Assembly (NCBI RefSeq): GCF_003790525.1
Contig: NZ_CP033635.1
DNA length: 64,000 nt
DNA from: Escherichia coli
GTDB taxonomy: Bacteria > Pseudomonadota > Gammaproteobacteria > Enterobacterales > Enterobacteriaceae
Strand: one strand, 5' to 3'
Shown: one piece after another, positions 54,299 through 54,500 of the stretch
How the letters are laid out: the number at the start of each line of letters is the position of its first letter
Numbering within the stretch: position 1 is the stretch's first letter
The notes under the pieces: generated by a model
Told to the model about the DNA's origin: nothing
The model's database searches: none
What the model saw: the letters and a program-made list of their open reading frames with translations, nothing else
Made by a program: the position numbers and the translations under genes

Positions 54299-54339
54299 AT
54301 TTTTTTCCATCAGATATAGCGTATTGATGATAGCCATTT

Positions 54340-54500
54340 TAAACTATGCGCTTCGTTTTGCAGGTTGATGTTCGTTATCAGCACTGAACGAAAATAAAGC
54401 AGTAACCCGCAATGTGTGCGAATTATTGGCAAAAGGCAACCACAGGCTGCCTTTTTCTTTGACTCTATGACGTTACAAAGTTAATATGCGCGCCCTATGC
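54340..54500 (+). ncRNA. sraB: possible SraB small RNA in yceF-yceD intergenic region
   Basis: placed from recollection that SraB maps between yceF and yceD in K-12; boundaries not resolved from sequence. Confidence 0.3.

Follow-up and report, generated by a model that had tools for sequence, protein, structure and literature searches.

The yceF–yceD spacer of Escherichia coli carries the known small RNA gene sraB, whose database form looks like a lineage-specific extension of a more compact family-wide core

The closest described counterpart of the locus analysed here is SraB (PsrD) of E. coli K-12, which has the same position, strand, length, yceF and yceD neighbours, four-helix consensus and terminator as the copy in our window (a 64,000-nucleotide stretch of E. 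coli contig NZ_CP033635.1, assembly GCF_003790525.1); nothing of substance differs between the two, which are separated by one loop substitution. Other systems share single features with it. The ProQ/FinO ligands cspE 3′ UTR, SibB and FinP are, like SraB, structured RNAs with a Rho-independent terminator, and the cspE 3′ UTR has been used together with SraB to map the ProQ binding surface. Unlike these ligands, SraB is a free-standing intergenic gene that neither derives from a 3′ UTR nor is a type I antitoxin; it exceeds them in length, and its contacts with ProQ extend to the linker and the C-terminal domain. In genomic layout, oxyS–oxyR offers a parallel, in that both small RNAs diverge from a neighbouring gene through back-to-back promoters, an arrangement to which SraB is assigned in the literature. 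By contrast, OxyS answers to a regulator of its own and its targets are known; neither applies to SraB, which additionally adjoins a co-oriented operon promoter downstream. SraF, like SraB, lies immediately upstream of a gene (alx) on the same strand, and co-transcription has been reported for SraB. Whereas SraF is a leader, SraB ends at a strong terminator belonging to itself, beyond which yceD is served by a distinct near-consensus promoter that is invariant.

SraB was discovered, and confirmed by Northern analysis, by Argaman et al. 2001, as cited in a passage of PMC7967276, and a product of ~105 nt was already seen in 2001; published Northern and RNA-seq evidence for the transcript covers E. 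coli and Salmonella. SraB is a ProQ ligand in vivo and in vitro, enriched by co-immunoprecipitation and forming a 1:1 complex, and binding of the K-12 RNA has been characterised by SEC-MALS, by HDX footprinting, by an envelope from SAXS and by gel shifts using the FinO domain, the part of ProQ that recognises Rho-independent terminators (PMC7367173). In Klebsiella, loss of hfq lowers the level of the SraB homologue 4.5-fold. Overexpression of SraB leaves biofilm and motility unchanged, and one paper describes the RNA as having ‘no documented function to date’. SraB is a well-studied ProQ ligand without a documented function, for which a coupling to the adjacent yceD–rpmF promoter, discussed below, gives a concrete hypothesis of action in cis.

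A whole-window Rfam scan placed an SraB match (RF00077) on the plus strand at 54292–54460, scoring 209.8 bits where the gathering threshold is 130, with E = 6.8e-44; the match spans model positions 1–169 of 169, is untruncated and has zero non-canonical pairs flagged. The curated K-12 ncRNA sraB (b4418, 1146589–1146757) maps exactly onto the same interval with an offset between the window and MG1655 of +1092297, under which the yceD ATG at 54497 corresponds to 1146794. Across the gene, 168 of 169 bases are identical, the sole mismatch being C in the window for T in K-12 at 54373, in the loop of hairpin 2. The first-pass annotation had expected an SraB of about 170 nt in the yceF–yceD spacer, oriented like yceD, to be checked by alignment with K-12 sraB and by an Rfam scan. 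Both bear it out, with coincident ends in the alignment, a full-length Rfam match and a length of 169 nt by either source, and its figure of 198 bp for the spacer holds (54299–54496). Its suggestion that SraB might overlap the yceD start does not survive: the 3′ end at 54460 falls 36 nt short of the yceD ATG, and it is instead the start of yceF, which runs divergently, that the annotated 5′ end overlaps in antisense, by 7 nt. We are therefore close to certain that the spacer holds the known small RNA gene sraB (psrD) on the yceD strand, with one terminator-defined 3′ end and two starts. The finding is correct but already known; the comparative anatomy that follows is a small refinement that leaves the identity of the element unchanged. 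The coordinates of the features discussed, and of other RNA elements found in the window, are collected in Table 1.

Table 1 Features of the sraB locus and other RNA elements in the window
Feature	Position	Strand	Basis or remark
sraB/psrD as annotated, 169-nt isoform	54292–54460	+	Rfam RF00077 and K-12 b4418
Short isoform, ~109 nt, main form in published RNA-seq	54352–54460	+	Start at 54351 or 54352
yceF start codon	54298–54296	−	Sequence; K-12 yceF 1146011–1146595, minus strand
yceD ATG	54497	+	Open reading frames and K-12 annotation
−10 hexamer TAAAAT for annotated long start	54281–54286	+	Within yceF codons Ile-Leu; 6 nt before 54292
Rfam helix 1 (positions 18–21 with 37–40), long isoform only	54309–54331	+	Rfam model
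Weak −35 candidate TAGCGT	54317–54322	+	17 bp upstream of TAAACT; inferred from geometry
−10-like TAAACT, candidate for short isoform	54340–54345	+	In conserved box CATTTTAAACT (54335–54345)
Lineage-specific insertion of ~56 nt with hairpin 2	54347–54402	+	Edges alignment-dependent, ±3 nt
Hairpin 2 (SraB positions 61–101)	54352–54392	+	Rfam structure, compensatory changes
Hairpin 3 (SraB positions 111–135)	54402–54426	+	Rfam structure; near-invariant core CCGCAATGTGTGCGAAT
Intrinsic terminator: helix 54431–54455 and U-rich tail to 54460	54431–54460	+	Last helix of Rfam model
yceD promoter candidate TTGACT-17-TAATAT	54459–54487	+	Promoter scan, 9/12 matches
Ysr251	2961–3154	−	Rfam, 192 bits
tRNA	4503–4587	−	Rfam, above gathering score
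ES056	10187–10278	−	Rfam, above gathering score
ES036/CssrF	20372–20414	−	Rfam, above gathering score
PyrC leader	29545–29594	−	Rfam, above gathering score
rne 5′ UTR element	52096–52432	−	Rfam, 260 bits

The region is near-universal in the species, being found in 5424 of 5426 complete E. coli genomes. In the E. coli RefSeq records listed or inspected, an sraB feature is absent under the match, which carries only yceF and yceD, or ‘none’, instead, and among the records inspected the curated K-12 record is the one that annotates sraB. As a coding unit SraB was rejected: its longest internal ORFs run to 13–14 codons, no Shine-Dalgarno sequence was seen, and hairpin 2 changes pair by pair rather than codon by codon.

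At the 3′ end of the gene, the GC-rich, hairpin-capable segment followed by a T-run that had been pointed out in the spacer is present as described, with ggcaaccacaggctgcc at 54435–54451, ttttt at 54452–54456 and then cttt. Of the two roles offered for it, that of small RNA terminator stands and that of a dedicated yceD leader falls. The element folds alone at −10.4 kcal/mol, in a helix that includes flanking A/U pairs, and the helix at 54431–54455 is followed by UUUUUCUUU, giving the 3′ Rho-independent terminator with a U-tail expected of a ProQ ligand. As a mere 5′ leader of yceD, SraB was rejected on account of the separate near-consensus promoter between terminator and ATG, invariant in 72 species.

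To place these elements in a wider frame, we gathered 80 orthologous enterobacterial loci, one per species, through the YceD protein, a choice independent of SraB itself. In 72 of the 80 species the yceF–yceD spacer is just 140–143 bp long and carries only the TAAACT box, hairpin 3 and the terminator. Spacers of 197–198 bp occur in E. coli, E. albertii, Salmonella enterica subsp. arizonae, one Citrobacter genome and Intestinirhabdus, and three Cedecea-like genomes have spacers of 232–267 bp. An insertion of ~56 nt, which follows directly on the invariant box and brings in hairpin 2, is absent from the 72 short-spacer species; within the sample, it is present only in Escherichia, Salmonella, the Citrobacter genome and Intestinirhabdus. 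The possibility that hairpin 2 is a dispersed REP- or ERIC-like repeat was discarded for E. coli, where the insertion is single copy in each of 5424 genomes. Rfam scores follow the same division. Among the compared loci, only Salmonella (193 bits) and Citrobacter (159 bits) pass the gathering score; Intestinirhabdus (105.5 bits) and the matching short-form loci (34–92 bits) fall below the RF00077 threshold though most are clearly homologous, and Atlantibacter and one further locus gave no RF00077 match in the Rfam scan. The threshold captures long-form members only and misses short-form homologues.

The helices of the Rfam model differ in how far their support extends. When the Rfam structure was imposed on the five long-form species, 90.8% of cells were paired, against 37–42% with partners slid, and in the upper helix of hairpin 2 five of nine pairs had changed on both sides with pairing kept. 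In the short-form set, which comprised 49 distinct sequences, the joint value for hairpin 3 and terminator was 94.6% paired, against 29–68% for slid controls. Taken singly, the hairpin 3 inner stem was 96.9% paired over these sequences, with a primary sequence at least 90% conserved, and the terminator helix was 93.7% paired, with compensatory changes in its upper stem. Helix 1 is paired in 85% of cells in the five long-form species; across 53 species the value is 43.9%, within the range of slid controls, and RNAalifold predicted no pairs in the helix 1 segment of the 53-species alignment. Covariation thus supports hairpin 2, hairpin 3 and the terminator, and helix 1 only inside the long-form group; as a family-wide RNA element helix 1 is unsupported across the 53 species. 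Beyond a few genera, the first 60 nt of SraB resemble promoter DNA in their behaviour, not structured RNA.

From these comparisons we propose that the conserved core consists of the promoter box, hairpin 3 and the terminator, with a predicted RNA of ~55 nt; that hairpin 2 is a later insertion under selection at the RNA level; and that the 169-nt isoform is a further addition confined to few genera. What the databases define as SraB, an RNA of 169 nt with four helices, thus appears to have grown, within one lineage, out of a smaller core shared by the family. A limited search of the published literature found no description of this comparative anatomy.

The 5′ end requires separate treatment. 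In several RNA-seq data sets of transcription start sites, the main SraB start lies 60 nt inside the annotated gene. The Salmonella RNA is ~99 nt long. [quoted passage not shown] The 109-nt form folds into three clean hairpins at −33.1 kcal/mol (z = −2.86) and in this respect beats the 169-nt form (z = −1.92). Each start has a candidate promoter. The TAAAAT hexamer of the long start, called a ‘canonical sigma70 promoter’ in one paper, is confined in the 80-species comparison to Escherichia and Intestinirhabdus; in Winslowiella it reads TAAAAC, and in other genera synonymous choice of a yceF Leu codon leaves AAGAAT or AGGAT in its place. The TAAACT hexamer ends 7 nt upstream of 54352, the published +60 start, and its box, CATTTTAAACT, is found in 79 of 80 species, lies 94–96 nt from the yceD ATG in 71 of 80 and is invariant in two alignments (A2 and A6). 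The T and G of the weak −35 candidate TAGCGT are invariant across 53 distinct sequences, and Fur and FNR sites have been predicted around the internal SraB promoter. Against assigning the box to SraB stands a TAAAAT on the opposite strand (54341 to 54336) that overlaps it, so that its conservation could serve yceF: the box could also, or instead, be the −10 element of yceF, and conservation alone does not separate the two. The matter has practical weight, in that a wrong SraB 5′ end alters the predicted fold and hence matters for deletions, probes and target predictions.

These elements can be assembled into a working model. SraB has one 3′ end, fixed by the intrinsic terminator at 54431–54460 and shared by two nested 5′ ends. 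A promoter with TAAACT as its likely −10 element starts transcription at ~54352 and yields the abundant form of ~109 nt, comprising hairpin 2, hairpin 3 and the terminator, and a second, essentially Escherichia-specific promoter, with TAAAAT at 54281–54286 in the first yceF codons, yields the 169-nt form. ProQ binds the RNA, which ends in a Rho-independent terminator whose A-run pairs with part of the U-run, and SraB, thus bound and stabilised, could act in trans by base-pairing through the hairpin-3 loop and linker (CCGCAAUGUGUGCGAAU..UUGGCAAAAGG). We favour ProQ-assisted pairing of this kind only tentatively, at distinctly less than even confidence. The near-invariant primary sequence of hairpin 3 across Enterobacteriaceae is as expected of a seed region. 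Arguing the other way, this invariant sequence lies 70–90 bp upstream of an invariant yceD promoter and might be conserved as DNA. No complementary site for the invariant hairpin-3 sequence was found within the 64-kb window.

Downstream of the terminator, 72 species show essentially no variation over the 43 bp that separate the T-run from the yceD ATG, and the −35 element of the yceD promoter starts inside the SraB U-tail, so that TTGACT and SraB share 2 nt. The literature describes a promoter ahead of yceD that drives yceD–rpmF and much plsX transcription. Tanaka et al. 1989 are said to have mapped a promoter there. The whole block of TTGACT-17-TAATAT, then GCGCGCCCT, then ATG (54459–54499) is essentially invariant in the 72 species. 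A normally spaced start would leave ~0–5 nt before the ATG, and no Shine-Dalgarno sequence was seen upstream of it, which suggests that yceD mRNA from this promoter would have little or no leader, and that the discriminator, being GC-rich, is of the stringent type.

Several other explanations of the locus have to be weighed against the model. The most sceptical, that there is no RNA gene and that a chance GC-rich hairpin sits inside an ordinary promoter spacer, could draw on the generic terminator scan, which did not flag the SraB hairpin, and on the fold of the whole 169-nt sequence, which just moderately beats its shuffles. That scan listed nothing here beyond the yceD promoter and a weak hairpin on the minus strand; it missed the SraB terminator because an A·C mismatch interrupts the stem, and its silence was not counted against the terminator. 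The Rfam score, the K-12 annotation and the covariation in the helices refute the chance-hairpin reading, and with Northern, RNA-seq and ProQ-binding data published besides, its probability is negligible. A more serious competitor gives the SraB unit a role as an upstream tandem module acting in cis on the yceD–rpmF–plsX operon. Its terminator would insulate the yceD promoter or feed it by read-through, hairpin 3 and the T-run would owe their conservation chiefly to a role at the DNA level, in activating a stringent-type promoter from upstream, and the SraB RNA would in part be incidental, its binding by ProQ fortuitous. The fixed distance from TAAACT to the yceD ATG, the overlap of the −35 element with the SraB 3′ end and the near-invariance of the intervening 43 bp all fit such a module, as do the read-through reported in log-phase E. 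coli, the co-transcription of the Dickeya dadantii homologue with its downstream gene described in the literature, and the more than 4-fold repression of Salmonella SraB by ppGpp, which resembles that of ribosomal promoters. We also count in its favour a putative Fis-like 15-mer centred at −71 from a predicted yceD start. Yet hairpin 2 and the upper terminator stem have evolved by compensatory changes, indicating selection on RNA structure and not on DNA; a strong terminator followed by an independent near-consensus promoter means that yceD needs no SraB transcription; and specific ProQ binding is documented. We consider the cis module unlikely on balance but a real contender, the trans reading being only slightly likelier. 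A related scenario receives somewhat less credence again: the ancestral element would have been a ~55-nt unit of TAAACT promoter, hairpin 3 and terminator, fused to the invariant yceD–rpmF promoter and working mainly in cis, into which the 56-nt hairpin was inserted later in the Escherichia/Salmonella/Citrobacter lineage, and to which a second promoter within yceF was added in Escherichia and Intestinirhabdus, these additions leading to a longer, ProQ-bound RNA. Were this true, the DNA of the terminator, T-run and hairpin 3 would double as the upstream region of a stringent-type promoter, and the Rfam model and its threshold would describe the derived form only.

The overlap with yceF invites a different function, in which the 169-nt isoform, being complementary to the yceF mRNA over its 5′ UTR, ribosome-binding region and start codon, together with ProQ blocks translation or triggers decay in late stationary phase. 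Besides the 7-nt overlap of the annotated 5′ end with yceF, this antisense role could appeal to the minus-strand TAAAAT at 54341–54336, from which a yceF start near 54329 is predicted, giving 38 nt of perfect complementarity to the long isoform only; to published overlapping yceF promoters, P1 and P2; and to the classification of SraB as a divergently transcribed overlapping ncRNA. The yceF start is itself a prediction, however, the abundant short isoform would miss such an mRNA, and yceF transcription is barely detectable in the cited RNA-seq sets. Moreover, the long-form promoter and helix 1 are conserved in few genera only, which leaves the family-wide conservation of the locus unexplained, and we regard antisense control of yceF as improbable. 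We think it similarly doubtful that the SraB RNA itself is without function.

The start of yceF itself can be judged on comparative grounds. Our ORF finder extended the frame by 13 codons to an upstream ATG at 54337–54335 on the minus strand, inside the conserved box, giving 207 in place of the annotated 194 aa. Variation in T-run length breaks this frame in other species, E. albertii included, so the annotated start at 54298 was preferred to the 207-aa one; the extension is probably not real. Beyond the other end of yceF, REP-like palindromes (gccggatgcgacg...cgcatccggcg) lie at ~53640–53710, between the rluC stop and the yceF stop.

Within E. coli, hairpin 2 exists in more than one form. The allele in our window is that of the majority of the species, identical in 3692 genomes. 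A divergent allele, seen for example in strain E5 (347–514 of its extracted locus, corresponding to window 54292–54460), occurs in 92 complete E. coli genomes and is only 60–80% identical to the common one; its apical stem has changed from UUGAUG/UAUCAG to CUGGCA/UGCCAG and still folds. The same allele carries a T-to-A change just upstream of the TAAACT box (CAATTTAAACT).

A few of the compared loci depart from the general pattern. That of Escherichia sp. MOD1-EC7003 is a mosaic that changes affinity within the SraB locus: yceD and what follows it are 92–99% identical to E. coli, and its yceF and 5′ spacer are 80–92% identical to Pseudocitrobacter and only 64–75% to E. coli, while its first 1.7 kb align poorly to both. 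Recombination or an assembly chimera could account for this mosaic. In the Citrobacter genome with the long spacer, Rfam reports a naRNA4 (60.8 bits) upstream of yceF, at 1618–1700 on the minus strand of its locus. Cedecea neteri (~2338–2427 of its locus) and two related genomes have an insertion of ~90 nt between hairpin 3 and the terminator, with which the Rfam SraB score falls to 34 bits. The ends of this insertion, ATACCCGTCATATTTTAAG ... TGCAACTTAAACTATTTAGGGTAG, resemble an ERIC-type repeat.
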